The notes beneath the pieces are model-generated. The model was not told the origin of the DNA. It was given only the letters and a program-made list of their open reading frames with translations, and searched no databases. 48,307 bases of DNA from Phycisphaeraceae bacterium (lineage in GTDB: Bacteria > Planctomycetota > Phycisphaerae > Phycisphaerales > Phycisphaeraceae), in assembly GCA_029260675.1 (NCBI GenBank), contig JAJDCV010000282.1:1-48307 (forward strand). The letters run 5' to 3'. The position numbers and the translations under genes are program-made. Positions 3,290-37,255 of this stretch are shown piece after piece. Each line of letters begins with the position of its first letter. Positions within the stretch are counted from its first letter, which is position 1.

Positions 3290-3298
3290 GGGCCGCCT

Positions 3299-4725: not shown

Positions 4726-4750
4726 GTCGGCCTTCCTTGCGTTCTATGGT

Positions 4751-8130: not shown

Positions 8131-8543
8131 TGGGATGCCTCCAACCGCTTGGCGTGTTCTTCGGACTGGTACTTGCTGGCACACTTGGTCATCAGGGTGT
8201 CTGCCTGGAAGACGCCGGCCTCGTCGAGCTTGCCCTCGACCATCACCTCGCCGCCGGGCTTGAAGGTGTCGGGGACGACGCCCTGGTAATGCACGGAGAC
8301 GCGGTTGCTCTCGCCGTGCAGGTCGAACTTCGCGGTCAACATGGCCGGGGCAACATCGACATTCTCCTGATCGACGAGCCCAAACAGCCTGACCCGCCGG
8401 TCCTGGTAGGCCGTGTCCTGCACGAAATCATCCACGTGCAGGTAGTAAACCCAGCCGCTCTTGACCCCCGCCACCGCCAGGTAGCCCACGGAGGCGATCA
8501 GGACCATACCGGCGATCAACATCTTGATACGTACATGTGTCAT
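8127..8543 (-). CDS. ccmE: haem chaperone CcmE, Cys-variant (CXXXY instead of HXXXY)
   Basis: MTHVRIKMLIAGMVLIASVGYLAV TM anchor followed by an OB-fold-like body. The C-terminal LMTKCASKY aligns with the E. coli LAKHDENY haem-binding site. The Cys codon is at 8181..8183. Start taken at ATG 8543, because the ORF-track extension to 8654 is hydrophobic nonsense. Confidence 0.85.
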   Translation of the reverse strand: MTHVRIKMLIAGMVLIASVGYLAVAGVKSGWVYYLHVDDFVQDTAYQDRRVRLFGLVDQENVDVAPAMLTAKFDLHGESNRVSVHYQGVVPDTFKPGGEVMVEGKLDEAGVFQADTLMTKCASKYQSEEHAKRLEASQ

Positions 8544-8699
8544 AAGCCCGTCCCTTTTACACAGCGCGTCGGGATACCTCACACAAAGCAAGTGCCAAAC
8601 CACGATCACTGTTGGCACCGATGGACGATTCATAATTATCATAAAATCAAGCATTTACAAGCTATATTGGGTTTGTGTCTCCGGCCGGGGCCCCGGCAA

Positions 8700-20549: not shown

Positions 20550-22174
20550 GAAGGGTCCCCATCTGTGGAGGTATCGCCGGGCCGGATCGTGGTCGGCGAC
20601 GGGTCAGCCGGTGGCGTTGCCGGGGGTGTCGCCGGGGGTGTCGGCTTGGGTGTCGGCCCACTGGAACGCCGGTAGGTTTTTTGTTCGTGGCATCCCGGTG
20701 AGCACGACCCGCCGTTCTCGGTCTTTGTGAAATTGATGGGCATGGCCCACTGCGAACCCTCGAAAGGCACGTCGGCGGCGATGTGGTCCGGGCGGTCGCT
20801 GCCGTGGATGTCGTGGCAGGCCTTGCAGGTCCGGCCTTTCTTGTCGCGATGGACGTGCAGGTAGTGCAGGTTCTGATCGCCCTCGCGGAAGCCGGTGAGC
20901 TGATCGGTGGTCTCGGTCAGCACCAGGTCGGCGCTGTGGCAGCTGAAGCACAGCGCGTAGTTAGTGAGGTCGAACGAGGCGTAGAAGGTGTCGGGGAAGG
21001 ATTGTCGCAGGAGGCGGGCGTTCTCGCCGCCGTGGACGCTGTGGCAGGCCGCGCAGTCCCCGGCTCGCACGGGCCCGTGCAGGAAACGGCGGTTCAGGGT
21101 CGACTGCATGTCGGCGATGGTCCGGCCGTCGGTCGCCTCGATGGGTTCGTTGTGGCATCGCATGCACAGGTGGTCGGCCCGGTCACGAAGCAGGTTCGGG
21201 CCGGCCGCGGCGTGTGGGTCGTGGCAGTTGGCACAGCCGTCTTCGATAAACAGCGCATCGTGCGATACCGGCTGCGATTTGATGCGCTCGGCCATCTGCT
21301 CGTGACAAGCGAAGCAGCTATCCGCAACCGGGGCGGGTAACTGATACGGGAACGCGCTGGTATGTGCGTCGTGACAACCGGTGCAGTTCTCTTTGGCGGG
21401 CTCGTGGATAAACGGCGAGTTCGCGAGCTTGACCTGGATACCCGTGTGGCAACTGAAACAGTGATCGGGCTGCTCACCCTGGCGCAGCAGGTTGCTTGCG
21501 TTGGCCTCGTGTGGTTGGTGGCAGACGGTGCACTGACCAGAAGCAAACGGGCCGTGGGCGTACTTCTGTAACGGTGTTTCGTGGCACGTCGCGCAGGTTA
21601 GTTCGATGCTCGGCTGTGTCAGCAGAAACTTGGCGTCGGACCGGTGCGGGTCGTGGCAGGCGACACAGCCTGAGTCCTCAATCGCCGCGTGCTGTTGTGT
21701 GCGTGCGCCGAGGACGGGATGGCAGAAGGTGCAGGTCTGGTTGCCGGCTCGTTTCATGGGGTAGACATGGGCACCGGCATCGGGCTCGTGGCAGGACTGG
21801 CAGTTGGCGACCGCAACCGGGCCGTGGACGTGCTTGGCGTTGACCAGGCCGGTGTGGCAGCCGGGCGTGACGCACGAAGCGTCTTCAGGCAGAGCCGTAG
21901 TCGGGCGGGGCAAAGACTCGACGGGGTCGGTCATCTGCAAGGCGTCTATACCGGCGGGGTCAGGGTGTTGGGTTTTAGTTCCGATGGGCGATTCGTAGTG
22001 CCCGGTTGACGCCGCGGCGGGCGCATCGGTCTTGCGTGCCGACCCGTCTGGGTCGCTCGGTTCTTCGTGCCCACAGCCCGAGAGCAATAGAAACAGGCAC
22101 ACACAAAGCAAACCCGGCGCGCATCGCCTCCACCTGCTGGGACCGGCTCGTGATTTAGCCGGGCGTTGGATCAC
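20546..22174 (-). CDS. 15-haem-motif c-type cytochrome lipoprotein (paralogue 2)
   Basis: The GTG start overlaps the upstream stop (GTGA). Lipobox LLLSGC. It has 13 CXXCH motifs plus CVTPGCH and GGSCSPGCH, and a Pro/Thr-rich tail PTPKPTPPATPPATPPADPSP. Confidence 0.85.
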   Translation of the reverse strand: MIQRPAKSRAGPSRWRRCAPGLLCVCLFLLLSGCGHEEPSDPDGSARKTDAPAAASTGHYESPIGTKTQHPDPAGIDALQMTDPVESLPRPTTALPEDASCVTPGCHTGLVNAKHVHGPVAVANCQSCHEPDAGAHVYPMKRAGNQTCTFCHPVLGARTQQHAAIEDSGCVACHDPHRSDAKFLLTQPSIELTCATCHETPLQKYAHGPFASGQCTVCHQPHEANASNLLRQGEQPDHCFSCHTGIQVKLANSPFIHEPAKENCTGCHDAHTSAFPYQLPAPVADSCFACHEQMAERIKSQPVSHDALFIEDGCANCHDPHAAAGPNLLRDRADHLCMRCHNEPIEATDGRTIADMQSTLNRRFLHGPVRAGDCAACHSVHGGENARLLRQSFPDTFYASFDLTNYALCFSCHSADLVLTETTDQLTGFREGDQNLHYLHVHRDKKGRTCKACHDIHGSDRPDHIAADVPFEGSQWAMPINFTKTENGGSCSPGCHEQKTYRRSSGPTPKPTPPATPPATPPADPSPTTIRPGDTSTDGDPS

Positions 22175-23718
22175 GGCTGCGCCTCGCTTGGGGTGGCATC
22201 GATCCGGGGCACGGATTTCAGTGCGTCCAGAGTGTATTTGTAGTTCTCGATCGAGACGTTGAGCAGGGCCGTCGCGTAGGTGACGTTGTGCACGCCGTGA
22301 CCGAGTTCGACCAGGCGGACATTGTGATCCGCGTCGTCCATGAGGCGTTGGAGCTTGAGAAGCTCATCGGGCGGTATCACCGCGGCAGCCAGATCCCCGC
22401 TTGCCAGTATTTGCTGCTGTTTGGTGTATGCCAGGTGCTCGCCGATCGTGTCACGCCACTCTTCGAGCACACCGCTGTAATGACCTTCATGGCAGTAATC
22501 ACAGGAGGCCTGGGCCGCGAGGTAGGTTTGCCCGGTGACCTCGGCGACTTCCTGGCTGAACTCACGCTGCTGGTGGCACGCAACGCAATCGACCTGGGCG
22601 CTATACATCGGGCTGGGCATGTCCGGCACGCCCCGGCCACCGATACCGCTGTACAAATTAGCCGGGCCGTTGTGCGACAGGTCGTGGCACTGGGCACAGC
22701 TGCTCTTCTCCCCGCCGACATGCGGGTCCGGCCCCGCCATCAACCCCCCCGTAGCCGCGAGCCCGGCCGTGAGGTGGTGCACGATCTGCACGTGGCAGCT
22801 GGAGCACTCGACCTTGTGATCGGTGATGTGCGTCTTGTGCATGAAGCTGGTCTCGCCGTAACGGGCAACCTGCGTCGCTTTGTTGTGGCAGGTCCAGCAC
22901 AGCTGCTTGGGCACGGCCCCGTCGCCCGATACCGCGTCGACATGACAGTTTTCACACGTCACACCACGGTCGATGTAGTCTTCGTGATTGAATACCCCTG
23001 TCGCGAGCTTGATCTCCGAAGCCGGTGCTTCGTGGCACGATCGGCATCCGCCCAGCGTCTGGTCGTCGCGCCCGTGTTCCAGGCCTTTGAAATGGCACAG
23101 GAAGCAGGTGTCCAGCGTCACGACCAGGTGCTGACCCTGCACGATCTGGGAGTGGCACGACACGCACCGCAGCTCCTTGCCCCGTCGAAGATCGGTCAGG
23201 TGCGGCGTGTGGTCGAACTTGATCGTGATCTCCGTGCCGCGCTGGGTTTGGATTGGCCAGTCGACTTTGCCTTCGAGCAGGCGTTGGCTGTGGCATTCCT
23301 CACGCATACACGAGCTGTCCCGGACCTCCGCGTGGGGCTTGGAGCCGTAGGTGTTGGTGATGTATTTCACGCCCTGGCTGGAGGCCTGCCACTTGCCTTG
23401 AAGCGTCTTCTCGATCCCCGGCTCGAAGTGGCACAGCACACACGCCACGTCTTTGTGCGTCGAGGTGTGCCAGGCCTGGTAATACGGCTCCATGATGTGA
23501 CATGACCGGCAGAAATCCGGCTGCATCGAGTACTCGGCAAAGCCCAACGACCCGACGACAAATCCCACTAATACCAACAACACCCATCCCCACCGGCTTG
23601 GTACGACGCGCAGCCATCGCCCTTCCCGCCGGCGCAAACCCAGCCACCGCCAGCCACGCAGGCGATGATCGGGAGCCGACACTTCTTCGATAGGACGATC
23701 CGAATTCTCTGCACACAT
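22171..23718 (-). CDS. membrane-anchored NapC/NirT/NrfH-type multihaem cytochrome (12 motifs)
   Basis: A single N-terminal TM segment (WGWVLLVLVGFVVGSLGF) is followed by FCRSCHIMEPYYQAWHTSTHKDVACVLCH, the classic NapC/NirT start. In total there are 11 CXXCH motifs plus CMREECH (CX4CH). Confidence 0.8.
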   Translation of the reverse strand: MCAENSDRPIEEVSAPDHRLRGWRWLGLRRREGRWLRVVPSRWGWVLLVLVGFVVGSLGFAEYSMQPDFCRSCHIMEPYYQAWHTSTHKDVACVLCHFEPGIEKTLQGKWQASSQGVKYITNTYGSKPHAEVRDSSCMREECHSQRLLEGKVDWPIQTQRGTEITIKFDHTPHLTDLRRGKELRCVSCHSQIVQGQHLVVTLDTCFLCHFKGLEHGRDDQTLGGCRSCHEAPASEIKLATGVFNHEDYIDRGVTCENCHVDAVSGDGAVPKQLCWTCHNKATQVARYGETSFMHKTHITDHKVECSSCHVQIVHHLTAGLAATGGLMAGPDPHVGGEKSSCAQCHDLSHNGPANLYSGIGGRGVPDMPSPMYSAQVDCVACHQQREFSQEVAEVTGQTYLAAQASCDYCHEGHYSGVLEEWRDTIGEHLAYTKQQQILASGDLAAAVIPPDELLKLQRLMDDADHNVRLVELGHGVHNVTYATALLNVSIENYKYTLDALKSVPRIDATPSEAQP

Positions 23719-23730
23719 AATGGATGACTC

Positions 23731-25926
23731 CTAGATCAAACCAAGCCCCGCCAGGACGATCAACGTGACCATCGCCAGCCCGATCGACATCGCCAATACA
23801 CCTATGACTAAAGAGGCCCTGCGCTGCCAAACCGGTGGCGTCTCCATACGCAGCGACTCCAGTTCGCCCGACTGCCTCAGCTGGCGGTATTCCATCGGCC
23901 GTTCGTGACGCAACTCGTCCTCGTCCACCACCCCGGTGAAGATCACATCATCCACCGGGAACTTCTCCGGGCGCAGATTCGCGTTAAAGAAGTGGATCGT
24001 AAAGATGAACCCCACCGCCAGCAGCGCTTCATACCCGTGCACGATGGTTGCGATGTTGAATCCCCACCCCGGGATGACGATCGAGAACACCGCGGGGAAC
24101 CAGAGCATCAACCCGGTGCCCCCGATGATGAAAGTCCCGACGATCTCGGCCCAGTAGTCGAACTTTTCCCAGTAGGTCCAACGGTCAAGCGCCGGCTTGC
24201 CCTTGCCGGTGAAGAACCAGCGGAACATCCCCAGGCAATCGGAGAAATCCTTGAGCCTGGGCAGGAGGGTGTGCGGGCCGGTGAGGAGTTTACGCGCCGG
24301 TTGCCGGCTGAATCGTTTGTAGATCCCCACGAAATGGATCACGAAATTCAAGCACAGGATGATCGCAAAGAGCCGATGCCAGAGCCCCGCGGCGTACCCC
24401 CCGCCCAGCATCACGGTCAACCCCTTGGCCCATCCCTGGTCGGAGAAGAACAAAGGCATCCCGGTCAGTGTCAGCCCGAAGAAGGTGATCGCGACCAGCG
24501 CGTGGTTCAGCCGGTTGATCTTGCGGAAACGCTTGATCGACTTGCCCTTGGCGGCGGTGTGCAGCTTCGCCTTGCGTGCGGTGTGTCGGCGGCGCTCGAT
24601 CAGCGACCGGATCAGCCACAGCACCGAGTGCACGCCGTAGAACACGAACGTGATGCTCATCAGGATCACGAAGTAGAGCCAGACGCCGTGGAGGATCGGG
24701 AAGTTCTCCCCGTCACGGTAATCGGCGTGCGGCATGAACTGTGCGAACTTGGCGTTGGCGGATTTGTGACAGGATCGGCAGGTGTCCACGAGGTTGTCCG
24801 CGTGAAGCCGGGACATCGGGTCGGCGACCGGCTGGATGTCGTGCGCCCCGTGGCAGTCGCTGCACCGGGCGGCCCGGCTGGAGCCCAGCTCGTTGACCTG
24901 CCCGTGATAACTCATCCGGTAGGTTTCGTAGAGCGAGGCCTTACCCCGCTTGTCGTTGTCGATGCGGTCGTGGCACTGACCGCACTCCCCGATGATGTCA
25001 CGCATAAACCCGGGGGTGGCGGCGTGGGTGATCGCGTGGGAGGCGTGGCAGTCGCTGCAGACCGGGGCGTTGGGGTCGCCTGCCGTGAGCTTTTGGCCGT
25101 GGATGCTGTTGGCGTAGACCTCCTCGATGCCGCGGTGGCATTGGCCGCAGGTTTCGGGGACCTGATTACGATGGATCTTTGAGGCCTCGTCGGCGGCGGG
25201 CCTGATTTCGTGCCCGCCGTGACAGTCGGCGCAGGTCGCGGCGACGATCAGCCCCGCCATCTTCACCGCCCGGCCGTGGACGCTCTGCATGTAGCTCTGA
25301 ACGTATTCGGTCTCATCGTGCCCGTTGGTTGTCTTCTCCTGGTGCTGGCTGTGGCAGCCACCGCAGAGATTGATGACGTTCAGCGGGTAGGTTTTCGACC
25401 GGCGGTCCGAGGACGGGTAGACGTCGTGCCCGCCGTGGCAATCGGCACAGGACGGCGCGCGGACGTCCCCGTCGGCGGCCGCCTCGGCATGGATGCCCCG
25501 GCGGTGTTCGGCCGCGGCCGGCTCGTGACAACTGGCCGTGCAACTGGCCGGCTCGAGTGTCATCGCGTGAGGCAAGACCTCCGCGTCCTGGTGGCAATCC
25601 GTGCATGCCAGCGCGGCGTGCGGGCCGTCCATAAGCGCATCAGGCGGCGTGAAAAGCGTTGGCCGGGATTCGGACTGACGATCCAGCAACATCGGGTCCT
25701 GCGGCGGCGCGACCATCGACCGGCGTTCCGATGGAGACAGGTCGGTGATCCGCCGTTGGCCGTGGCAGTCGTAGCAGCGGTCGTTCTGGGTCTGGGCCTG
25801 GGTCAACCTGACCGCCTGTGCCTGAGGCCAAGGCCCGGTCACCAGGAGAGCAACCATCGCCAGCAGGCCGGACGCGGCTAGACCGGCGGCGGTGGGATTG
25901 CTCGAGATCGGTTTCGGCCTTGGCAT
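23731..25926 (-). CDS. CbcL-like fusion: periplasmic multihaem c domain (11 motifs) plus C-terminal b-type cytochrome membrane domain (HydC/FdnI-like)
   Basis: Signal peptide, then 10 CXXCH motifs plus CTASCH. About six TM helices follow, with conserved His residues (NHALVAITFFG, LWHRLFAIILCLNFVIHF, IVHGYEALLAVGFIFTIHFFN). Confidence 0.8.
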   Translation of the reverse strand: MPRPKPISSNPTAAGLAASGLLAMVALLVTGPWPQAQAVRLTQAQTQNDRCYDCHGQRRITDLSPSERRSMVAPPQDPMLLDRQSESRPTLFTPPDALMDGPHAALACTDCHQDAEVLPHAMTLEPASCTASCHEPAAAEHRRGIHAEAAADGDVRAPSCADCHGGHDVYPSSDRRSKTYPLNVINLCGGCHSQHQEKTTNGHDETEYVQSYMQSVHGRAVKMAGLIVAATCADCHGGHEIRPAADEASKIHRNQVPETCGQCHRGIEEVYANSIHGQKLTAGDPNAPVCSDCHASHAITHAATPGFMRDIIGECGQCHDRIDNDKRGKASLYETYRMSYHGQVNELGSSRAARCSDCHGAHDIQPVADPMSRLHADNLVDTCRSCHKSANAKFAQFMPHADYRDGENFPILHGVWLYFVILMSITFVFYGVHSVLWLIRSLIERRRHTARKAKLHTAAKGKSIKRFRKINRLNHALVAITFFGLTLTGMPLFFSDQGWAKGLTVMLGGGYAAGLWHRLFAIILCLNFVIHFVGIYKRFSRQPARKLLTGPHTLLPRLKDFSDCLGMFRWFFTGKGKPALDRWTYWEKFDYWAEIVGTFIIGGTGLMLWFPAVFSIVIPGWGFNIATIVHGYEALLAVGFIFTIHFFNANLRPEKFPVDDVIFTGVVDEDELRHERPMEYRQLRQSGELESLRMETPPVWQRRASLVIGVLAMSIGLAMVTLIVLAGLGLI

Positions 25927-26177: not shown

Positions 26178-27137
26178 TTACGCCTGTGTGTGCATAGGGT
26201 CCAGGAAACTGTGTTTGTAATACACCAGCAGCCCCGCAAAACTCAGCAGCAGGCACACCGCCAGCACCCCCATCACCGTCTGCTGCCGGCGCACTTCCCG
26301 CTGGCGCTTGATCAGCTCGTGGGTCTCGGTCGTGTGATCGGTGACTTCCTGGATTTCCGCTGCGAAGTTATCGATCTCGCGCATGTTGAAGCTGTGGAAG
26401 ATCTGCCGGAGCTTGGAGTGGACCTCACCGACGTGGTGATGGAGTTTTTCCAACTCGAGGTTGCGGTACCCCCAGGACTCCAGTTCGTTGTAGAGCTGAC
26501 CCGACTCGCTGATACGCTGCTCGGTCTCGGTCAACGTCTGCTTGATCTGCTTAACCACCGCCATGGTGGAGGCTTCGTGACAGGGGCTGCAACGCCCCGC
26601 CTCGGCCCGGCCTGCGGTATCGATGATCTGGGGCGTCGCGTCGGTGATCTTGTGTGAGCCCTGGCCGTGGCAGTACAGGCAGGTCGGGTCGCCGAAGTCA
26701 CCGTGCGGGCTGCCCAGGTGTTTTTCCTTGATCTGGTCGTGGCACTTGCCGCAGAAGTAGGAGACGCTTCGGCCGGTGGTGTTGCTGACGATGCCGTCCT
26801 GTGAACGCCGCATCGTCAGGAACTCGGGGTTGCGTCGCTGGTGTGCGGCACGCTTCAGGGCGTCGGTGGATTCGAACTGATCCGGGCGGACCGCCGGGTT
26901 GCCCCCGTGACAGCCATCGCACCCGACGTTGGCCTCGTAATGGACGCTGTGCTTCCACTGCAGCTCGACGATCTCGCTGGATCGGCCGGGCAGATCCCGA
27001 TGGCACTGCACGCAGGCGTTGTCGGCATAGCGGTCGGTCGGGGCCGAAGGCTCCGCCGCCGGGGGGGTGGTTTTGTCCGCGGGGCTGGCGAGGGTTAACG
27101 CCGCCACCAGGCAAGCCGACAGGATGGAGCCGGTCAT
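26178..27137 (-). CDS. pentahaem c-type cytochrome with C-terminal TM anchor (probable c-subunit of the Rieske/cyt b complex)
   Basis: Five CXXCH motifs (CVQCH, CDGCH, CGKCH, CLYCH, CSPCH), then a coiled-coil-like segment and a C-terminal TM helix VMGVLAVCLLLSFAGLLVYY. The ATG overlaps the subunit IV stop (ATGA). Confidence 0.8.
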   Translation of the reverse strand: MTGSILSACLVAALTLASPADKTTPPAAEPSAPTDRYADNACVQCHRDLPGRSSEIVELQWKHSVHYEANVGCDGCHGGNPAVRPDQFESTDALKRAAHQRRNPEFLTMRRSQDGIVSNTTGRSVSYFCGKCHDQIKEKHLGSPHGDFGDPTCLYCHGQGSHKITDATPQIIDTAGRAEAGRCSPCHEASTMAVVKQIKQTLTETEQRISESGQLYNELESWGYRNLELEKLHHHVGEVHSKLRQIFHSFNMREIDNFAAEIQEVTDHTTETHELIKRQREVRRQQTVMGVLAVCLLLSFAGLLVYYKHSFLDPMHTQA

Positions 27138-27808
27138 AGCTGTGACTCCTTATTATCCTGCGTATCGGGCGAATCTGGGGATAAATCCGGGGGCGGGGGC
27201 GGCGAGTCAAGGATCCGGCGTATGGCCTTGCGCTCGTGGGCGATCATGATGTAGAAGATGACCACCGTCACCGCCGTCATCACGAACAGGAACGGCTGTT
27301 CCAGGAAGTACTCACTGGGCGAAGCGAGTTGCTCGTGCCCGTCCACCATGTGCTCCGGCCAGCCGCCCCAGATCGTCAGGCCCATCAGCACGAAGATAGA
27401 GGCCGTCACCACCAGCCGATACCCCCAGCCCGGCCGACGGTGCGCGCCGCGGCGGTACCAGAACGGCAGCAACAACACCGCCAGCAACACCGGGCCCTGG
27501 CTTAACACGCCCAGGGTCTTACCGCTGATCCCAAACAGCTCCGTGGGCATCAGACGCAGGTGCTGGTAGACCGCCAGGAAATACCACTCGGGTTTGATCC
27601 CCATCGGTGTGGCGCCCTGCGGGTTGGCCGGCTCCTCGACGTGCATCACGCCCTTGAGCCCCGCCATCTCCAGCAGCACCGGCAGTGTCGCCAGCAGCAT
27701 GATCACCGCCAGCGTACACAGCACCACCACGATCATCTTGATGTTCTCGTTGGGCCAGAACGGCTCGAGCTGGTCCGGTCGGTATTGCTTTTTGTAATCA
27801 ACAGCCAT
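27134..27808 (-). CDS. cytochrome b C-terminal half (b6f subunit IV-like)
   Basis: 224 aa membrane protein with the PEWYFL motif (GIKPEWYFLAVYQ). Confidence 0.8.
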   Translation of the reverse strand: MAVDYKKQYRPDQLEPFWPNENIKMIVVVLCTLAVIMLLATLPVLLEMAGLKGVMHVEEPANPQGATPMGIKPEWYFLAVYQHLRLMPTELFGISGKTLGVLSQGPVLLAVLLLPFWYRRGAHRRPGWGYRLVVTASIFVLMGLTIWGGWPEHMVDGHEQLASPSEYFLEQPFLFVMTAVTVVIFYIMIAHERKAIRRILDSPPPPPDLSPDSPDTQDNKESQL

Positions 27809-27834
27809 CGGTCACTCCTGGACTCGTGAGCCTC

Positions 27835-28494
27835 TTACAACGGTCTGGATATCCCGGTTCGGCGGATCATAGCGAAGTGCATAGCCATGAACGCGCTGAT
27901 TGTCGCGGGGATGATCCAGATATGCAGCGCAAAGAAGAATCCCAGCGTCTCGCCGCTGATCGCCTCGCCACGCCTGACCCAGCGGACGATGTCCTCCCCG
28001 ATCACCGGGATCGCGCTGGGGATCTCCGTCCCGACCTTGGCGCCCCAGTAGCTCAGCTGCGTCCAGGGCAGCAGGTACCCGGTGAACGCCAGGATCAGTG
28101 TCAGCATCAGCAGCACCACCCCGCTGACCCAGTGCAGTTCGCGCGGCGAGCGGTAGACCTTGTAGTACGCGATCCGGGCCATGTGCATCAGGACCATCAC
28201 GATCATCAGGTTCGCGCTGACGGTGTGGATCCGCTGCACCAGCCAGCCCATCGAGACGTTGGACTTGATGAAGGTCACGCTGTCCCAGGCGTTGGCCGGG
28301 TCGGGCTTGTAGTACATCAGCAGCAACACGCCGGTGAAGACCTGAACGAGAAAAATCAACAGGGACAGCCCCCCGAAGCACGCCGCCCAACCCAGGGTCT
28401 TGGGGACGCGCTTCTTTGTAACGTTCTTCTCGATCAACGGCGTGAGGTTGTACCGCCGATCGAACCACCCGAAGATTGTTTTGACGATTCGCAT
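27835..28494 (-). CDS. cytochrome b N-terminal half (cytochrome b6-like)
   Basis: Four-helix cytochrome b core (FGGLSLLIFLVQVFTGVLLLMYY, RIHTVSANLMIVMVLMHM, HIWIIPATISAFMAMHF). ATG at 28494 preceded by AAGGAA. A GTG lies one codon upstream at 28497. Confidence 0.85.
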   Translation of the reverse strand: MRIVKTIFGWFDRRYNLTPLIEKNVTKKRVPKTLGWAACFGGLSLLIFLVQVFTGVLLLMYYKPDPANAWDSVTFIKSNVSMGWLVQRIHTVSANLMIVMVLMHMARIAYYKVYRSPRELHWVSGVVLLMLTLILAFTGYLLPWTQLSYWGAKVGTEIPSAIPVIGEDIVRWVRRGEAISGETLGFFFALHIWIIPATISAFMAMHFAMIRRTGISRPL

Positions 28495-28503
28495 CACGGT
28501 TCC

Positions 28504-28947
28504 TTACACAGAGATAATGATCTTGCCGTCTTTGACCTCGAAGGGGATGGGCTTGAGCGGCTCGTTCACGGGCCCGCTGACCACGCCCCCGTCCGAGCCG
28601 AACACCGCGCCATGACAGGGGCAGTGGAACTGGGCATCGCTGCTGACCCAGTTCACGGCACAACCCAGGTGCGGGCAAGAAGCGCTAAAAACGTGGGGCC
28701 CATCCGCGGTCGCCAGGATGATGACCTGCAGGCCGCGGTAAGCCTCGTACCTCGCCTGACCCTGCACGAGCTGATCCAGCGGGATCTCCAGCGGCTTGCC
28801 TTCACCGATGCGCGAGGGTTGGCTGGTCACGAACGATGCCACCGGATACGCGACCATCGCCGCGGACGCAGCGGTCATCGCACCGATGCACGCCCGGCAG
28901 AACGTCCGTCGGCCGTTGTGTTGTTCACATGTCTTGTCACAGCTCAT
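28504..28947 (-). CDS. Rieske [2Fe-2S] protein with twin-arginine signal
   Basis: CPHLGC...CPCHG Rieske boxes and an N-terminal NGRRTFCRA Tat-like motif. The ATG overlaps the upstream stop (ATGA). Confidence 0.85.
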   Translation of the reverse strand: MSCDKTCEQHNGRRTFCRACIGAMTAASAAMVAYPVASFVTSQPSRIGEGKPLEIPLDQLVQGQARYEAYRGLQVIILATADGPHVFSASCPHLGCAVNWVSSDAQFHCPCHGAVFGSDGGVVSGPVNEPLKPIPFEVKDGKIIISV

Positions 28948-30008
28948 GGTGTCGGCTCCAACTCGTAGTAGTCCAAAAGGAGTTCGGCGGCCCGCTTGAA
29001 GCTGGCGGCGGCCGCCTCGCTGTCCCCGGCCTGTTCCTGGATCAGGCCCAGCAGGTAATGCGCCCGCGGTTCGGAGGGGTTCTCCGTGAGCACCTTCCGC
29101 GTCAGCTTCTCCGCCTCAGGCAGTTCGTCACCGCCGCGGCGGGTCATCACAAACGCCAAGCCCAGCGCCGCGTCTGACGCCTTGGGATCCTGTTCCAAGG
29201 CCCGGTTGAAATGCTGCTCGGCCTCGGAGAGCCTGCCTCGCCGCAGCTTGAGTGTTCCCATCCCCACCCACGCGGCCGTCTGCTTCGGATCCAATTCAAG
29301 CGACTCGGCGTACTTCTGCTCCGCTAACGCCACCAACCCCCGGGCGGAGAGCTGGCCGGCCAGCATCGTCAGCCGGCGGGCCCGGGCCTGGTCTTCGGTC
29401 AACCCGGAATCGGCCTGCGGGTGACGCCTAGCCTCGAACTGCTCGGCCGACAGCTTCCCCGCCGCCATCAGCAGCGCGTCAGCCATTCGGTCCGAAAAAT
29501 CATTTGTCAGCGCGGCGACGGCGTGAACGATTCGACCCTCGGCATCAATCACCGCCACGCTCGGCAGCACCGCCACACGGTAGGCATCAAACGCATCTCG
29601 TTTGGCGTCGTGCAGGACGGCGATCGGGGACACGTCGGCCCCCCCGCCTTCCGTCCCCTCGGCTTGCTCTAAACGGGTGACAATCAACATCGCATCGATC
29701 GGCTCACCGCGGAACCGTTCATCGGCCAGAACCTCTTTCAACTGGGCGCAGGCACGCAAGGTTCCGCTGTGGTACAGCTCCCCGAATACCAGAACCACCA
29801 TCCGGCCGCGCAGCGAATCGGTGCTGATGACTTCCCCCGCCTCTTCTGTGAACTGGATTTTCGGGGCATCGTCGCCCTGCCGCAGGTGGGTCACCGCCAA
29901 AGCGGGATCGACCCAGGCCGTTAAAGCCAGCAGGGCCAGCCCGACAACGGCCCAGGCAGGGACCAAGCCGGCTCGGATATCAGGCGCATAGCGCTTGGCA
30001 AAGATCAC
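28944..30008 (-). CDS. membrane-anchored CXXC-less redoxin (TlpA-like fold) fused to TPR repeats (paralogue of 18067..19134)
   Basis: The GTG start overlaps the upstream cytochrome stop (GTGA). No in-frame ATG lies before the TM segment. The redoxin-like MVVLVFGELYHSGTLRAC lacks the CXXC. TPR-like repeats are present (AEQKYAESLELDPKQTAAWVGMGTLKLRRGRLSEAEQHFNRALEQDPK...). Confidence 0.7.
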   Translation of the reverse strand: MIFAKRYAPDIRAGLVPAWAVVGLALLALTAWVDPALAVTHLRQGDDAPKIQFTEEAGEVISTDSLRGRMVVLVFGELYHSGTLRACAQLKEVLADERFRGEPIDAMLIVTRLEQAEGTEGGGADVSPIAVLHDAKRDAFDAYRVAVLPSVAVIDAEGRIVHAVAALTNDFSDRMADALLMAAGKLSAEQFEARRHPQADSGLTEDQARARRLTMLAGQLSARGLVALAEQKYAESLELDPKQTAAWVGMGTLKLRRGRLSEAEQHFNRALEQDPKASDAALGLAFVMTRRGGDELPEAEKLTRKVLTENPSEPRAHYLLGLIQEQAGDSEAAAASFKRAAELLLDYYELEPTP

Positions 30009-31447
30009 TGCGAACCTCCTGTGTTGTAAGCCGTCTCGCCCGCCGGCTTATCAGTCGCACCGCCGGCTTGTACCGCCTCGCGGGTGTAGGACCGGGTGTC
30101 GTGGCAGCCCGGCGAGCAGCTCCCGCCGGTCGGCGTCGTCTGGAACTTGATCTCGAGCAGCCAATCGCTGTCGCCGAACGGGACCGAATCGCGGATGTGG
30201 AACGGGTTGCGGGATGCGTGGACCTCGTGGCAGGCCCGGCAGGTCCGACCCTTCTTCTGATTGACGTGGACCCAGTGCAGGTTCAGCTCGCCTTCTCGGA
30301 ACCGCGTGAGCCCCTTGCCGTGACGGTCCTCAACCAGATCGGGCTGGTGGCAGGTGAAGCATAACCCGTAACGCTCAATGGTAAACGGGGCATAAAACTG
30401 GGGGGGGTAATCCTTGACAAGCATGTTGGCCCGGTCGCCTGTGTGAGGCTGGTGGCAGACGGTGCAGCTATCCTCTCGGATCGGGCCGTGGTGATCCGGG
30501 TTGTCCGCGAGCAGTTCCGCCATGTCGGTCAGCGTCCGGCCATCTTCTGTCTGGATCGGTTTGTCGTGACAGCTCAGGCACATCTGGGTCTGATCCGCCC
30601 GTTGCAGCTTGGGTAGCGGCGAGTTGTGCGGCGCGTGGCAGCCCAGGCACCCGCCGGATTCGGTCATGGCCCCGTGGACCACCGGGGCGCCCGCCAGCTG
30701 CTCCTGTATCTGTGTATGACAGCTGAAGCACAGGCCCGGGGCCTCCTGATTCAGTTGGTACTGGAAGTCGGAGGCATGGGCGTCGTGGCAGTCGGTGCAG
30801 CCGTCCTTGACCGGCGCATGGGTGTGCCGCTGCTGTCCAGGATCACCCTTGAGGTCCTGGCCGTGGCAGGTCAGACACAGGGCCTGCGGTTTATCGACCA
30901 GCAGGCTGGGCTCCCACGAGGAATGCGGCTCGTGGCAGAGGATGCAGGCCCCGGACGCAACAGGGCCGTGCTTGAACTTCTTCTGGGAAAAACCGTCTTG
31001 TTTGTGGCAACTCACACACAGACCACGCGTCGGGTCGTCGACCAGCATCATCTGGTAGTCCGACCCGTGCGGGTCGTGGCACTGGGTGCATCGGCCCTGT
31101 TCAACCGGGGCATGGATCACGTCACGATGCTCCAGCGTGTGGCAGGTCTGACACAATTGATCGCCTGGCAAAGTGAGCTTGAACGTGTGCTGGGATTCCG
31201 AGAGGTATTCGTGACAGGCCTCGCACTTACCCTGAGCGACCGGGCCGTGCGTGACCTTGGATGTGCCGACCCCCGCGTGGCAGTTGACGCTCTGACAGGT
31301 ATCGGTCTTGGTGGTGGGTCTGGGCTCCGGGGTCTCGCCCCGAAGCTGACCGAACCCGCCGGCAACCAGAACGATCCACAAGCAAGCCACGCCGCAGCGA
31401 CGCATGGTAGCGCGCCGTCGTATCGAGTCGATCAGTTTATCCGCCAT
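30005..31447 (-). CDS. 15-haem-motif c-type cytochrome (paralogue 3)
   Basis: 13 CXXCH motifs plus an N-terminal CQSVNCH (CX4CH) and a C-terminal GGSCSPGCH (CX3CH). The C-terminal roughly 110 aa are collinear with the two other paralogues. Confidence 0.85.
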   Translation of the reverse strand: MADKLIDSIRRRATMRRCGVACLWIVLVAGGFGQLRGETPEPRPTTKTDTCQSVNCHAGVGTSKVTHGPVAQGKCEACHEYLSESQHTFKLTLPGDQLCQTCHTLEHRDVIHAPVEQGRCTQCHDPHGSDYQMMLVDDPTRGLCVSCHKQDGFSQKKFKHGPVASGACILCHEPHSSWEPSLLVDKPQALCLTCHGQDLKGDPGQQRHTHAPVKDGCTDCHDAHASDFQYQLNQEAPGLCFSCHTQIQEQLAGAPVVHGAMTESGGCLGCHAPHNSPLPKLQRADQTQMCLSCHDKPIQTEDGRTLTDMAELLADNPDHHGPIREDSCTVCHQPHTGDRANMLVKDYPPQFYAPFTIERYGLCFTCHQPDLVEDRHGKGLTRFREGELNLHWVHVNQKKGRTCRACHEVHASRNPFHIRDSVPFGDSDWLLEIKFQTTPTGGSCSPGCHDTRSYTREAVQAGGATDKPAGETAYNTGGSQ

Positions 31448-31789: not shown

Positions 31790-33124
31790 TCAATCTCGTC
31801 TGATATCCGGCTTCATCACCAACCCTTGCCTGATAGGCAGGCGGATCGTCGCGGTGACGCCTTGGCCGGGTCGGTTGGTGAATTCAATGTGTCCGCCCTG
31901 ATTACGGATGAGGTTGTAGCTGATCGCCAGGCCCAGCCCGGTCCCCTTGCCCACGGGCTTGGTGGTGAAGAAAGGTTCGAAGACCCGGGCCAGGTGCTTG
32001 GGGTCGATCCCCGGGCCGTTGTCACTGATCCAGACCCTGCACGCCTGCCCGTCGTAGGCCGTGCCGATGGTCAGCCTTGGGGCGGTCACATCGTCCAGCG
32101 CATCGAGCGCGTTGAACAGCAGGTTGGTCAGCACCTGCTGCAGCGCGTGGGACTGGACCTCGATGCCCGGATCGTCGTCGGCGAATTGCTTCTGGATCGT
32201 GACGGCGCGCTGGCGGTGGTCGAAGCGGACCATCTGAAGCGCCGACTCCACCACGCTGTTGATCGGGACGTGCTCCCACTGGTAGTCCGTCGGGTGGGCA
32301 AAATCGGTGAGTTGCTGGACGATCTGCTTGATCCGCTGGACCTGCTGCCGCAGGGCGTCGATGTTCTCGGGCTTGATGTGGCGCTCGTTGCGTTGCATCA
32401 GTTGCAGCACGCCGTCCATGCTGGCAAGCGGGTTGGAGACCTCGTGCGCGACGCCGGCCGCCATCTGCCCCAGCCCGACCATCTTCTCCTGCTGGATCAT
32501 CGCCTGCTGTTGCCGGCGCAGGGTCTTGACCAGGATGCGGTTTCGGCGGTTTTGTGCGATCAGCCTGCCGCGGTGCCGGCGTAGCGTTGAGGTGATGTGG
32601 TTGCTCAGGTAAACGGTCACGGTCAAGGTGACGATCCAGCCGATCAGGACCAGGCGGTGCTCCAGCGTCAGTGGCCAGCTGCCGGTCAACTCCAGGCTTA
32701 ACGCCAGCAGCAGCACCGCCGCCGCCATGCCGCCGTAGGCCTGCCTCGGGGCCAGCAACATGCTGGTGAAGACCATATGGAAGACGAAGAAACCCAGCAG
32801 CGGGCTATGCGCGCCGCCGGTCCAGGCACAAAGCAACGCGAGGCACGCCAGATCGGGCAGGATGTGCAGCCACACAAACATACCGCCGGGTTCGGGGTGT
32901 GAACGCAAGGAGTGACTGACACTCAGCCAAAGCACGTTGTTGTAGGCGAGGATCGCCAAGCCCACCCACGTGATCGAGTAGGCCTTGTCGTGCCACTGCA
33001 ACCAGACGGCGTCCAGCAGCGACCCCAGGACTACCGCCGCGCCGGCGACCCAGCGCAGACCAACCAGCCACCTGAGCTGGTTGGTCATGAGCCTGCTGGG
33101 CTGTATCGGTTTCGCTTCCGCCAT
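31790..33124 (-). CDS. sensor histidine kinase with a six-TM N-terminal domain
   Basis: H box [13 protein letters not shown] box [17 protein letters not shown]1 [10 protein letters not shown]2 [13 protein letters not shown]. The N-terminal roughly 190 aa are hydrophobic helices with no large periplasmic loop. Confidence 0.85.
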
Positions 33125-33144
33125 ATGCTTTACCTGCCCGGGGT

Positions 33145-34197
33145 TTAAGACCCCGCAGCGGCGGCCGGTCCGTCCTCCCGGATCGACTCCCGCAGGTCCA
33201 GCATCTTAACCCCGTCCGTGTAATCAGTCAGCACGACACGCCGGAGTTGCTTCAGCGAGCGGATGACCTGGGCCATCCGCTGAAGGTTGTCGTGGATCTG
33301 CCCCAGGTTCTTCTCCAGAGCCACATCCGATCCAGACCGCCGGCGGAGCAGTGTCAGTTGCAGCTCGATCGTGGCGATCGCGTTGTTCAGTTCGTGGTTA
33401 AGGGTCAGCGCCATCTGCTGGAGCGCCTGGACCCTGCGGAGCTCGTTTTCCTGGAGCTTCTCGGCGAGGTTGTTATACGCACGGGCCAGCTCATCAAATT
33501 CGTCTTGCTGGCCGACCGTGACCCGGTGCGCGAAGTTTTCCTGGGCGAGTTCCCGGCTGGCGTGGACCAGCCGGGCGACCGGTCGCAGGACCATGCCCGC
33601 GGCCCGCAACATCAGCAGGATCGAGCCATTGATCACGAGCAGGAAACCGATCGCGATGGACACGACCAGCCAGCGGAACCGCCCGGTCAGTTTCGATTGC
33701 TCGGCCTGGGCATGCCCCTGGACGTGCCGGGCGATGCGTAGCAGGCTCTTTCGCATCTGGGACGCGGCGTCCAGCGCCGCGAGGTTGTGGTGCCGGGCCA
33801 GCTCTCGGTCCTGTGAAGTCGCCAGGATGCCTACCCGGGACTCGAAGCCATCGATCCGGCTGACCAGGTCTTCGTAGTCTCGACGGATCTCCATCTCGTC
33901 GAGTACGTAGTGCGAGCCGATCAAATCGGAGAGCCGACGCATCGACTCCACCGCGTCGATCAGCCCGTCGAGGTGGTGCTGCCGGCCCGTCTGCAAGGCG
34001 TAAAGCTCGACCTCTATCCCCGAGAGCGTGGTGCTTAATTCGTTGACCTGGTTGACCGCGACCGAGGCCCGGTTGTGCAGGTGGTCCAGGTCCACGAAGA
34101 CGCGCTGAAGTGACCACAACGCCGCGACAGCCAACACCATCAGCAGCGCGGTCAGCGAAAAGAGGATGAGTAGAAGTTTGTGGCGAAGCATGGTCAC
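33145..34197 (-). CDS. two-TM sensor-like protein with HAMP and DHp (HisKA-like) domains but no ATPase domain
   Basis: TM1, a roughly 140-aa periplasmic segment and TM2 (WLVVSIAIGFLLVINGSILLML), then a HAMP-like linker and LNHELNNAIATIE (H-box-like). The protein ends about 70 aa later with no N/G1/G2 boxes. The GTG at 34197 overlaps the upstream stop. An ATG lies at 34191. Confidence 0.7.
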   Translation of the reverse strand: MTMLRHKLLLILFSLTALLMVLAVAALWSLQRVFVDLDHLHNRASVAVNQVNELSTTLSGIEVELYALQTGRQHHLDGLIDAVESMRRLSDLIGSHYVLDEMEIRRDYEDLVSRIDGFESRVGILATSQDRELARHHNLAALDAASQMRKSLLRIARHVQGHAQAEQSKLTGRFRWLVVSIAIGFLLVINGSILLMLRAAGMVLRPVARLVHASRELAQENFAHRVTVGQQDEFDELARAYNNLAEKLQENELRRVQALQQMALTLNHELNNAIATIELQLTLLRRRSGSDVALEKNLGQIHDNLQRMAQVIRSLKQLRRVVLTDYTDGVKMLDLRESIREDGPAAAAGS

Positions 34198-35252
34198 GGC
34201 CCCTCGGATGACTCAGTTGACGCCGGCGGCGATGGCTCGGGGTGTGCATCGACGGCCGCCTGGGTGTGCGTCGCGTCGCTGGGGACACGGGGGGGGGCAT
34301 CAGGGGAACCAAGTCTTCCCCACCCCTCGCCAAGCTGTCCGGACATGTCGTGCACGGCGTCGTATTCGTCGGTACCGCAAGGGACGAAACGTTCCGCCCC
34401 AAACATCGATAGGGCCTGCCGCCCCGCCTCTTCCTCGTGCATACGCAGAAGAGCACGCAACAACTGCTCCGTCTGGCTATCGTCCAGGTCACGGCGCACG
34501 ATCAAAGCGTTGTTGGGCACCGCTTCGCTGGACACCAGCCGGCGGAACCTGCTCCCCGTGTGCCTGGACTCGAAGGCATCGATCCGCAGGTCCTTGGCGG
34601 CACCGGCATCGACCCGACCGCTGAAGACCTCCTCGATCGCCTGATCGTGCGTCCCGACCCAGCGCATCACGACGGCATCATCCCCGGCAAGCATGCCGCC
34701 CCGTGCCAGGGCATAGATCGGGAACAAGTGCCCCGCCGTTGTCGTTCGAACCATCGCGATCGACCGGCCGGCCAGGTCGTCCAGGGTTTGGATCGGTGAG
34801 TCGTCACGGACAAATATCACGCCCCGGTAGGTCGTCACGCCGTCCGCCGTCTGCGGCTTAACCAGAACCCTGGCCTGCAGCTGATCCAGCGTCAGCGTCG
34901 CCACCATAGACCCCATGAACGCGCCGTCGATCCGGCCCCTGGCCATGTCGTTCAACGCCCCGTGGTAGGTATTGGAAGTCACCAGTTCGACTGGCCGATC
35001 CAGGGCGTCCGCGAGGTAGTCCGCCAAAGCCCGGTAGCGCTGACGCTGCGCGAAGATGTCGCGTTCGGGTATCAGTCCCAAGTAGAGCTCTGCCTGGTCG
35101 GCGGCTCCCGCCGAGCCTGCACCACCGCGGCGCTCCGAAGCGGACAACCCGGCGGGAGCTCGGCTGAGCCAAAACACCAGGGCTAACACCAACAACGCCA
35201 GCGTGATACTCAGGGCCGTGGTTGAAATACGCATGCGACCGATCGACATCAT
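34194..35252 (-). CDS. PhnD-like (phosphonate-type) periplasmic substrate-binding protein, membrane-anchored
   Basis: N-terminal TM/signal segment, then LYLGLIPERD...YRALADYL...GRIDGAFMGS...YRGVIFVRDDSPI...LAGRSIAMV..., the pattern of the PhnD/phosphonate-bd SBP family. No ABC permease or ATPase genes are adjacent. Confidence 0.65.
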   Translation of the reverse strand: MMSIGRMRISTTALSITLALLVLALVFWLSRAPAGLSASERRGGAGSAGAADQAELYLGLIPERDIFAQRQRYRALADYLADALDRPVELVTSNTYHGALNDMARGRIDGAFMGSMVATLTLDQLQARVLVKPQTADGVTTYRGVIFVRDDSPIQTLDDLAGRSIAMVRTTTAGHLFPIYALARGGMLAGDDAVVMRWVGTHDQAIEEVFSGRVDAGAAKDLRIDAFESRHTGSRFRRLVSSEAVPNNALIVRRDLDDSQTEQLLRALLRMHEEEAGRQALSMFGAERFVPCGTDEYDAVHDMSGQLGEGWGRLGSPDAPPRVPSDATHTQAAVDAHPEPSPPASTESSEGP

Positions 35253-35867: not shown

Positions 35868-37133
35868 ATGACCCCTCCCAACACACCGGGCAACGGCTCC
35901 TCGACCATGACCCACCTGCGTGTCCTGGGCGATACCGACGGCCAACCCTCCCCCCCCGCGCCGCCGCTTCGCCTGGTCTTCTGGGAATCCACCGCCGGGT
36001 GTAACCTCGAGTGCGTCCACTGTCGGCGCCTGGAGGTCTCACGCGAGTTGAGTCGTAAGGACCTGGATCATCAGCAGGCCATGAAATTCATTGAGAGCTT
36101 GCCAGAGACCGGCAACCCGATCGTGGTGTTCTCAGGCGGTGAACCCCTGATGCGCCCGGATATCTTCGAACTGGCACAACGCGCCAAAGAGATCGGCCTG
36201 CCCACCGCCTTGGCGACCAACGGCACACCCGTCGATGACGCCGTCGCCAAGCGCATCGTCGATACCGGATTCCGACGGGTCTCCATCAGCTTCGACGGGC
36301 CCAGCCCCGACACACACGACAAGTTCCGCGGGATCGACGGCGCGTTCGAGGAATCGATCCGCGGGTTCAAGGCCCTGCGCAAGCTCGGGATGTCGATGCA
36401 GATCAACACCACCATCACCAAGCACAACTTCCACCTGCGCGACGAGATGTACCAGCTCGCGGTGGACCTGGGCGCCGATGCCCTGCACATCTTCATGCTG
36501 GTCCCCGTCGGCTGCGGGATGGAACTCAGCGAAGACGTCAAGCTGGACGACCAGGAGTACGAGGCGGCGCTGAACTGGATCTACGACAAGTCGCTGGAAG
36601 AACAGCTTCACTTAAAGGCAACCTGCGCCCCGCACTACTTCCGTGTGATGCGCCAGCGCGCCATGGCCGAGGGCCGACCGATGCCCCAGTCCGGCCACCC
36701 TCACAAGGGGATGGCGGACACCCGGCCGATGCCTTCGATGGGTTCCCCAACAGGTCACCCAGGCGGACACCCGGGGGGTCACCCCGGAAGTCATCCCGGG
36801 GGCGGTGACGACAACGCAAACATGAGCGCCATGACCAAGGGCTGCCTGGCCGGGCAGGCGGTGTGCTTCGTCTCGCACACCGGCGAGGTCTTCCCCTGCG
36901 GATACCTGCCGGTCAGCTCCGGCAACGTCAAGGACACCCCGTTCCCCGACATCTGGCGCGACAGCCAGATCTTCTCCGAACTACGCGACGACTCGAACAT
37001 CACCGGCAAGTGCGGATGCTGCGAATATAAAAAAGTCTGCATGGGCTGCCGTGCCCGAGCGTTTGCCGACACCGGCAGCTACCTGGCGACCGAACCGAAC
37101 TGCGGGCACACACCGGTGCGGCTGGGCGGCTGA
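35868..37133 (+). CDS. radical SAM/SPASM enzyme of the AhbC/AhbD (NirJ-like) alternative haem biosynthesis family, with a His/Gly/Pro-rich insertion
   Basis: CNLECVHC (CX3CX2C) radical SAM motif, GGEPL, and the C-terminal Cys cluster CGCCEYKKVCMGC. The insertion ...GHPHKGMADTRPMPSMGSPTGHPGGHPGGHPGSHPGGG... lies between the core and the SPASM region. Confidence 0.8.
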   Translation: MTPPNTPGNGSSTMTHLRVLGDTDGQPSPPAPPLRLVFWESTAGCNLECVHCRRLEVSRELSRKDLDHQQAMKFIESLPETGNPIVVFSGGEPLMRPDIFELAQRAKEIGLPTALATNGTPVDDAVAKRIVDTGFRRVSISFDGPSPDTHDKFRGIDGAFEESIRGFKALRKLGMSMQINTTITKHNFHLRDEMYQLAVDLGADALHIFMLVPVGCGMELSEDVKLDDQEYEAALNWIYDKSLEEQLHLKATCAPHYFRVMRQRAMAEGRPMPQSGHPHKGMADTRPMPSMGSPTGHPGGHPGGHPGSHPGGGDDNANMSAMTKGCLAGQAVCFVSHTGEVFPCGYLPVSSGNVKDTPFPDIWRDSQIFSELRDDSNITGKCGCCEYKKVCMGCRARAFADTGSYLATEPNCGHTPVRLGG

Positions 37134-37255
37134 AGACGGATGATAAGTACCGGGCCGGCGCGAGTCCGGCACGGGGTTTGTTTACAAAAGAATCAGGGCG
37201 GGCGGGACGGACCCGCTGCGGACGACAGACGGTTGAATCAAAAGGAGCCTCGGCC

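Follow-up and report, generated by a model that had tools for sequence, protein, structure and literature searches.

Cysteine-less thioredoxin–TPR proteins encoded directly after 15-haem cytochromes in Phycisphaerae: candidate private factors for apocytochrome assembly

Introduction

Among the described proteins that handle apocytochromes, NrfG and SirG are substrate-specific tetratricopeptide repeat (TPR) chaperones which are encoded in the cluster of their own substrate (PMC6976685, PMC3601427). For the thioredoxin-like protein CcmG, the titles of references 19 and 20 in PMC3601427 point to a holdase role, and to active-site cysteines that are, in Escherichia coli CcmG, important and not essential. 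CnoX (YbbN) is a further holdase (PMC8129009, PMC6282202). This article examines two paralogous genes, here termed A and B, whose products (Trx-TPR proteins) consist of a thioredoxin (Trx) domain without the CXXC motif and a TPR domain, and each of which directly follows the gene for a 15-haem c-type cytochrome. Both lie in a stretch of 48,307 nucleotides from a Phycisphaeraceae bacterium (assembly GCA_029260675.1, contig JAJDCV010000282.1, positions 1 to 48,307 of the forward strand), referred to below as the window. We tentatively read the two proteins as private assembly factors for the cytochromes encoded next to them.

Little is understood of how cytochromes that carry 10 to 30 or more haems mature, and their heterologous production is hard. 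System I*, a variant of the Ccm machinery with a CxxxY motif in CcmE, occurs in archaea and in Desulfovibrio; it lacks CcmH and often CcmG and CcmI, yet makes c-type cytochromes (PMC3601427; PMC9084895). According to Goddard 2010, as cited in PMC9084895, System I* functions without CcmH and CcmG. Whether organisms with such a reduced Ccm system (CxxxY CcmE, no CcmH/I) use non-orthologous apocytochrome handlers is an open question (PMC9084895). No description of the Trx-TPR family or of its gene cassette was found in the literature on Phycisphaerae multihaem cytochromes, on TlpA/TPR proteins or on cytochrome maturation; the nearest published mention is that of a TPR/partial-NrfG gene beside CcsAB in the Tenderiales uet (electron-uptake) cluster. 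The family is so far undescribed; its constituent domains are familiar.

Domain architecture of the Trx-TPR proteins

A first-pass annotation of the window, made from the sequence alone, had recognised A and B as paralogues, each following a 15-haem cytochrome gene. Both reading frames exist, on the minus strand, and their products are paralogues, with 24% identity over 279 residues (E 3e-14). The N-terminal domain had been assigned a TlpA/ResA-like fold, on which the annotation made its chaperone hypothesis depend, and this assignment holds. Pfam matches of A and B to AhpC-TSA/Redoxin are sub-threshold only; a profile of 33 family members, compared with the PDB, matches Bacillus subtilis ResA at E 1e-12. 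AlphaFold2 models of A and B have predicted local distance difference test (pLDDT) values of 86.7 and 86.9, and Foldseek gives template modelling (TM) scores of 0.80–0.86, with root-mean-square deviations of 2.5–2.8 Å, against DsbE, ResA and StoA.

The CXXC motif is replaced in both proteins, as the annotation had stated. Aligned residue by residue with ResA and Etrx2, A has H80 and T83 (FGELYHSGT) at the positions of the two CXXC cysteines; in B these positions are held by Q and S (ADQARS). The cis-Pro loop is retained, as V147-x-P149, invariant in the A family, and as W-P-[ST]-T in B. A contains one cysteine, which is not conserved, and the sole cysteine of B lies within the signal peptide. 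Among about 100 family representatives of about 340 residues no CXXC occurs, nor is there any CxxC among 44 Trx-like open reading frames beside metagenomic cytochromes of the family.

What stands in place of the cysteines is itself conserved. Across family members of about 340 residues the two positions read [H/Q/N]xx[T/S], and the surrounding motifs are conserved by subfamily, namely FGELY[HN]xx[TS], F.x.Qxx S and FWAGWSxRS. Subfamily A keeps FGELYH, in which E, Y and H hardly vary. The last of the three types, the SxxS subfamily (FWATWSPRS/FWAGWSxRS; loci L088, 8830..10014; L166, 1727..2812; L104, L115, L117 and L120), keeps the canonical TlpA FWATW context with serines for both cysteines. 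This retained context shows descent from canonical TlpA, and the SxxS subfamily looks, by its motif, like an evolutionary intermediate on the way from TlpA to the HxxT and QxxS forms.

Two enzymatic roles were considered and ruled out. As CXXC occurs nowhere in the family, there can be no active thiol-disulfide oxidoreductase; in a family without cysteines, thiol-disulfide exchange is chemically impossible, and a domain that lacks CXXC is therefore not to be called a thiol:disulfide oxidoreductase. Neither ccdA nor dsbD is present within the window. A peroxiredoxin (AhpC/TSA) is ruled out as well, the AhpC-TSA score being 25.5 bits (cutoff 26) and the peroxidatic cysteine (PxxxT/SxxC) being absent.

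The C-terminal TPR array of the first-pass annotation, of about four repeats in each protein, is borne out by matches to many Pfam TPR models and by about eight antiparallel helices in the AlphaFold2 models. The Pfam model PF23914 (TPR_CcmH_CycH), which generic TPR proteins match too, gives 49.2 bits for A and 30.8 bits for B (cutoff 42). An hhalign comparison of NrfG (sequence verified against 2e2e) with the A1 profile gives a probability of 9% (E 0.0035). When family hidden Markov models (HMMs) were run over every open reading frame, no other Trx-like or TPR reading frame was found in the window. One protein with TPR and redoxin-like parts, P0074, was set aside as unrelated; its domain order is reversed, and its redoxin-like domain is of the deiodinase type.

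Both proteins begin with a single hydrophobic segment, followed by a conserved AxA (in B of the form AYG or AYA, before Q). These segments had been taken for membrane anchors; given the conserved AxA, cleaved signal peptides are more likely, and A and B would therefore be soluble periplasmic proteins. Cleavage of A after PALA would leave V-T-H (residues 39–41; 29886..29894, minus strand) at the N-terminus, an X-X-His sequence of ATCUN-like type. V-T-H is kept in most members of the A family; in one subclade AAVPPRGS is found instead.

Pairing with multihaem cytochrome genes

The cytochromes that precede A and B in the window, cytA and cytB, are 42% identical, and a third gene, cyt542, encodes a further paralogue. 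Each of the three contains 15 haem motifs: 13 CXXCH, an N-terminal CX4CH and a C-terminal CX3CH, the latter reading GGSCSPGCH.

Overlaps of the GTGA type, in which a GTG start coincides with the cytochrome stop codon, had been annotated at both junctions. The claim stands for A, where the GTG at 30008 overlaps the TGA of cytA and is preceded at 6 nt by an AGGAGG Shine-Dalgarno sequence; at its other end, the stop codon of A overlaps the ATG of the Rieske gene (ATGA). For B, a GTGA is present, but the collection gene call P0095 (350 residues) begins 15 nt downstream at an ATG. This start matches the orthologue N-termini of the B family, which are conserved as M-T/K-H, and it is preceded by GAGGG. 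B therefore probably starts at ATG 19119, with an 11-nt gap to cytB and no overlap.

The same arrangement recurs in other genomes, of which thirty loci were fetched, including that of the cultured Fontivita pretiosa B-254. At 90% identity the A family comprises about 64 clusters and the B family about 41; all members are 320–370 residues long, and those that are named come from Phycisphaerae/Phycisphaerales only. In a search of 1.84 billion representatives with a Trx-domain HMM, 61 proteins reach E<=1e-30, and single-domain matches of about 340 residues number roughly 100; canonical multi-domain TlpA proteins with WCxxC enter the list from about E 1e-36 and are common below about 1e-23.

A 15-haem cytochrome gene directly precedes the A-type gene in 28 of the 29 loci with upstream DNA. 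At 23 of 27 cytochrome/Trx-TPR junctions the two genes share an in-frame 4-nt (A/G)TGA overlap; one junction has a 1-nt overlap, and three have gaps of 7–37 nt. As a rule, a GGAG-type Shine-Dalgarno sequence is embedded in the final stretch of the cytochrome gene. Downstream, the neighbour of the A-type gene is a Rieske gene in most loci and a NapC-like cytochrome gene in the L024–L030 clade; at L086 the entire unit consists of regulators, cytochrome and Trx-TPR gene, with no further gene after it. Because the downstream gene varies and the upstream cytochrome is constant, the constant partner is the cytochrome; this supports the view that Trx-TPR proteins are tied specifically to the multihaem cytochrome gene, and not to the Rieske/cytochrome b genes. 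The arrangement is not due to chance, since it recurs in dozens of independent loci.

The pairing is found at very different base compositions, as in L090 (75% GC), which has a double-Trx version of the cassette, and L088 (39% GC). The latter has two pairs; in the second, the cytochrome has five haem motifs, all CXXCH, and the Trx-TPR protein encoded after it has the FWATWSPRS motif. Genomes contain two to three divergent Trx-TPR paralogues, each linked to a particular cytochrome gene. The Trx-TPR proteins carry no cofactor motif, and theirs is the fastest-evolving gene of the operon, as the identities at L015 illustrate (Trx-TPR 43%, cytochrome 52%, cytochrome b 78%).

The cassette also occurs next to System II genes. 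On a 1.7-Mb metagenomic contig (L084, 7001..13636), a 15-haem cytochrome gene is followed by a Trx-TPR gene (34% identity to family A, NHEPT motif), an unassigned 355-residue gene, ResB and CcsA; here a System II synthase appears to be co-transcribed with the cassette. At L024 and L028, ResB/CcsA are located within 5–10 kb. The 355-residue gene between Trx-TPR and ResB is not a B-type paralogue and matches no family.

A census was taken from a metagenome scan seeded with the cytochrome family. It comprises 59 family cytochromes with the C-terminal CX3CH motif and sufficient downstream DNA. A Trx-TPR gene directly follows the cytochrome in 33 of the 59, and in four more the next gene is another family cytochrome which itself precedes a Trx-TPR gene. 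Other cytochrome genes come next in nine cases, a Rieske-like gene in two (L094 and L146, called by resemblance of the N-terminal signal sequence only), an NHL gene in one, and nothing recognisable in ten. Tandem cytochromes share one Trx-TPR gene in the window and at L091, L100, L105 and L109, so the ratio is not 1:1; at L134, L139 and L155, two or three consecutive Trx-TPR paralogues follow one cytochrome.

Fusions were also considered. No cytochrome–Trx fusion gives Rosetta-stone support; cytochrome variants of 600–660 residues carry an extra 4-haem domain instead, and NrfC/NrfD genes come after them. At L083 (7001..11074), a homologue of the 15-haem cytochrome (56% identity) has an additional 4-haem domain fused to its C-terminus and is followed by NrfC-like (4Fe-4S) and NrfD-like genes, with no Trx-TPR partner. 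This is the same wire cytochrome plugged into a different quinol-oxidising module.

Proposed role and alternatives

On the strength of sequence and gene context, we tentatively propose that Trx-TPR serves the multihaem apocytochrome encoded beside it as a private holdase or assembly factor in the periplasm. The protein is co-translated with the cytochrome encoded just upstream. Once exported by Sec, the unfolded apocytochrome, of about 450 residues with 30 cysteines, would be bound by the groove of the former active site in the Trx domain together with the groove of the TPR domain. In this bound state it would stay in solution, out of reach of proteases and open to the Ccm or Ccs lyase during the attachment of 15 haems. 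The factor would influence haem loading in this way and be released after maturation. This role is favoured because the precedents of CcmG, NrfG/SirG and CnoX agree in pointing to it. Among solved structures, those closest to the N-terminal domain, ResA, DsbE and StoA, are thiol-disulfide oxidoreductases of cytochrome maturation or of the extracytoplasmic space, which supports a role in maturation. Further support comes from the conservation, within each subfamily, of the former active-site residues and their loop in proteins incapable of redox chemistry, from the constancy of the cytochrome as upstream partner, and from maturation genes in the neighbourhood (ResB/CcsA at L084, L024 and L028; ccm, hemA and ahbC/D-like genes in the window). 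Rapid evolution and the lack of a cofactor motif suit an accessory factor more than an electron carrier, and the adjacency of ResB/CcsA at L084 and the shared copy for tandem cytochromes fit an accessory factor as well.

Several observations weigh against this proposal. In the census, 22 of the 59 cytochromes, most with CX3CH/CX4CH, lack a partner gene immediately behind them or behind a tandem cytochrome; hence not every family cytochrome requires the factor, at least in cis. The TPR domain, to judge from the profile comparisons above, resembles CcmI and NrfG in a generic manner and is not demonstrably of CcmI/NrfG type. The first-pass annotation had, moreover, drawn on the lack of ccmG, ccmH and ccmI. 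None of these is in the window, which contains ccmA, B, C, (D), E and F only, and to this extent the annotation was right; their absence creates no need for a substitute. The window's CcmE has ...TKCASKY at its C-terminus, with CxxxY in place of the haem-binding HxxxY. This marks System I*, in which the absence of ccmG/H/I is a known condition. Finally, gene A is translationally coupled to both of its neighbours, as the genes of stoichiometric subunits are too, and consecutive paralogues fit a scaffold as well as a chaperone. The suggested specificity for CX3CH/CX4CH sites is not supported, as a CXXCH-only cytochrome has a partner (L088) and cytochromes with the same motifs at L083 and L085 have none.

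The points on coupling and consecutive paralogues would fit another model equally well, in which the protein has no redox function and remains attached to the mature 15-haem cytochrome as a permanent subunit or adaptor. It would dock the cytochrome to the Rieske/cytochrome b module, to a NapC-like protein or to an outer-membrane conduit, or would cap or insulate the end of the haem wire. The 4-nt overlaps of gene A with cytochrome and Rieske genes are typical of equimolar complexes, the cassette sits inside structural operons in most loci, several consecutive paralogues occur at some loci, TPR proteins are classic scaffolds, and pocket residues are conserved within each subfamily. This main rival is nonetheless somewhat less probable than an assembly factor, since its downstream partner is variable or absent (Rieske, NapC-like, ResB/CcsA or nothing), one copy serves tandem cytochromes, and Trx-TPR is the least conserved gene of the operon; in the two loci with a Rieske-like call from the signal sequence only, the cytochrome is followed by that gene without any Trx-TPR.

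It has to be asked, too, whether Trx-TPR proteins replace CcmG/CcmI in general, in System I* or II, serve all c-type cytochromes and are merely encoded in the largest cytochrome operon. The missing CcmG/H/I of System I* (PMC3601427), the open question of non-orthologous substitutes noted in the Introduction and the match of the Trx and TPR domain types to the missing functions would suit this idea. It is improbable in view of the two to three divergent paralogues per genome, each with its particular cytochrome, of the position outside the ccm cluster, which holds an unrelated 442-residue gene instead, and of the occurrence of the cassette beside both System I (window) and System II (L084, L024); in addition, the reduced set ccmABCEF, expressed in another Methanosarcina host, appeared to be enough by itself for making cytochrome c (PMC9084895). 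Least probable is that the pocket and the X-X-His N-terminus bind a small ligand (haem, a metal or a quinone-like molecule) for delivery, sensing or protection, and not a polypeptide. The conserved FGELYH of subfamily A, with its nearly invariant E, Y and H, and the ATCUN-like N-terminus expected after cleavage would be in keeping with this. Subfamily B and the SxxS type, however, lack these residues, VTH is absent from one A subclade, and no known haem- or metal-binding family is matched.

Extended to the class, the proposal of a private holdase or assembly factor would state that redox-dead pseudo-thioredoxin–TPR proteins, a widespread class, are private periplasmic chaperones needed for threading and haem-loading very long wire cytochromes, which we regard as conceivable and rather doubtful. 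If it is true, organisms with streamlined System I* or System II machineries leave the handling of apocytochromes to factors linked to the substrate, and long cytochrome wires expressed in heterologous hosts need their cognate Trx-TPR partner. A chaperone would be a useful co-expression tool for bioelectrochemistry; a subunit would be a new component of periplasmic electron conduits. The cassette, found in Phycisphaerae and behind related cytochromes on many metagenomic contigs, is a concrete candidate for a knock-out, and the idea is testable since Fontivita pretiosa is cultured and carries the operon, at about 917–938 kb of NZ_CP191258.1 (L034).

The cytochrome island and its other genes

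The genome has a GC content of 62.7%, its relatives are Phycisphaerae, and the region is an island of cytochrome and electron-conduit genes (Table 1). Those relevant to both Trx-TPR proteins are all on the minus strand, in a single long operon-like array. Downstream of B follow NHL-repeat proteins, further cytochromes, a 682-residue protein and then the ccm cluster with hemA; within the window, the island is flanked by ccm, hemA and ahbC/D-like genes.

Table 1. Positions of the genes and protein features discussed in the text (window coordinates; aa, amino acids).
Feature	Position	Strand	Remarks
PhnD-like binding protein and two histidine-kinase genes	31790..35252	-	First in transcription order
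cytA	30005..31447	-	15-haem c-type cytochrome, 480 aa; Paired_CXXCH_1, E 2.8e-66
Paralogue A	28944..30008	-	Cys-less Trx-TPR, 354 aa; directly after cytA
A, signal peptide	29895..30008	-	Residues 1-38; PALA/VTH, cleavage site inferred from conserved AxA
A, thioredoxin-fold domain	29439..29894	-	TlpA/ResA-like, residues 39-190; cis-Pro loop V-L-P-S
A, former active site	29748..29786	-	FGELYHSGTLRAC; H80/T83 at both CXXC Cys positions
A, TPR domain	28959..29411	-	About 4 repeats; conserved RGGDEL loop
Rieske Fe-S protein	28504..28947	-	Opens cytochrome b6/subunit IV-type quinol oxidoreductase module (27134..28497)
Cytochrome b6-like	27835..28497	-	
Subunit IV-like	27134..27808	-	
5-haem cytochrome	26178..27137	-	
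11-haem/cytochrome b561 fusion	23731..25926	-	
NapC/NirT-like cytochrome	22171..23718	-	
cyt542	20546..22174	-	Third 15-haem paralogue; lipobox LLSGC; tandem with cytB, no partner gene of its own
cytB	19131..20549	-	15-haem cytochrome, 472 aa
Paralogue B	18067..19134	-	Cys-less Trx-TPR; probable true start ATG 19119 (350 aa)
B, thioredoxin-fold domain	18565..19002	-	
B, former active site	18889..18915	-	FVMADQARS; invariant Q and S at both Cys positions
B, TPR domain	18100..18537	-	
System I* ccm cluster	2409..8654	-	Order ccmE-ccmF-(unknown)-ccmA-ccmB-ccmC-ccmD
ccmE	8127..8654	-	CASKY motif
ccmF	6022..8184	-	
Unknown 442-aa gene	4751..6079	-	Between ccmF and ccmA
ccmD candidate	2409..2588	-	
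hemA	1120..2412		

A lipoprotein-type signal (LLLSGC) and a C-terminal tail rich in Pro and Thr distinguish the product of cyt542 from cytA and cytB, which have neither; the 15-haem paralogues are probably all three placed differently between the inner and the outer membrane. The 682-residue protein (12865..14913, minus strand) lies between NHL-repeat proteins and cytochromes and has no family match; it is conserved (30–32% identity) in the same neighbourhood in L024, L025, L028 and L030, and is a candidate for the outer-membrane porin of a porin–cytochrome conduit. The cytochrome b6-like subunit scores 228 bits (cutoff 290) with the NCBIfam model for ExtP, the b-type cytochrome encoded in an operon for selenite/tellurite reduction. 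The match suggests that electrons pass from a quinol oxidoreductase module to periplasmic multihaem cytochromes.

The 442-residue gene of the ccm cluster encodes a protein with a signal peptide, repeats rich in His and Pro (LPQGHPPLPQGHPELPQDQPELPQGHPPLPADHPQIP), a central part rich in beta structure and a C-terminal transmembrane helix, and has no Pfam or NCBIfam match. It is possibly a lineage-specific Ccm accessory protein, and, should such a protein exist here, it is a candidate at least as good as Trx-TPR. Two radical-SAM/SPASM genes (35868..37133 and 37178..38521, plus strand) both score under the curated cutoffs; one is nearest to AhbD (haem b synthase, 436 bits), and the other matches NirJ1 (486 bits) and AhbC (479 bits) nearly equally. 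The pair, located beside the cytochrome island, suggests a sirohaem-dependent alternative haem pathway.

Comparison with known systems

The best sequence and fold matches of the N-terminal domain are ResA, CcmG (DsbE) and TlpA, with which it shares the thioredoxin fold, the TlpA-type N-terminal beta-hairpin, the cis-Pro loop and an extracytoplasmic location. Unlike these proteins, Trx-TPR has no CXXC, is fused to a TPR domain, and is encoded behind the gene for a substrate-type cytochrome instead of in a ccm or res operon.

CnoX is the only solved fold match that is built in the same way, with a Trx domain without CXXC followed by TPRs. For B, the best full-length match by Foldseek, over 311 columns, is with E. 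coli YbbN (3qou); as the domains are oriented differently, the two superpose poorly as a whole (TM 0.25–0.31). CnoX is cytoplasmic, docks to GroEL through its C-terminus and is activated by HOCl, and its Trx domain is of the classical type with a redox-active cysteine, whereas the Trx-TPR proteins carry signal peptides and a Trx domain of TlpA type, and none of their cysteines is conserved.

Private chaperones without cofactors are also represented by NarJ, TorD and NapD, whose genes lie in structural operons with translational coupling to the structural genes, and which, by analogy, hold the apoprotein until the cofactor is inserted. These differ from Trx-TPR in having unrelated folds, in being cytoplasmic and in serving Tat-exported molybdoenzymes.

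With CcmI (CycH), NrfG and SirG, finally, the Trx-TPR proteins have a periplasmic TPR domain in common. They differ from CcmI in having a single N-terminal hydrophobic segment and no two-helix membrane module, from NrfG and SirG in the window's lack of an adjacent lyase gene (NrfE/SirE), ccmF being 10 kb away, and from all three in their additional Trx domain. In its genomic logic, the Trx-TPR cassette parallels NrfG and SirG.

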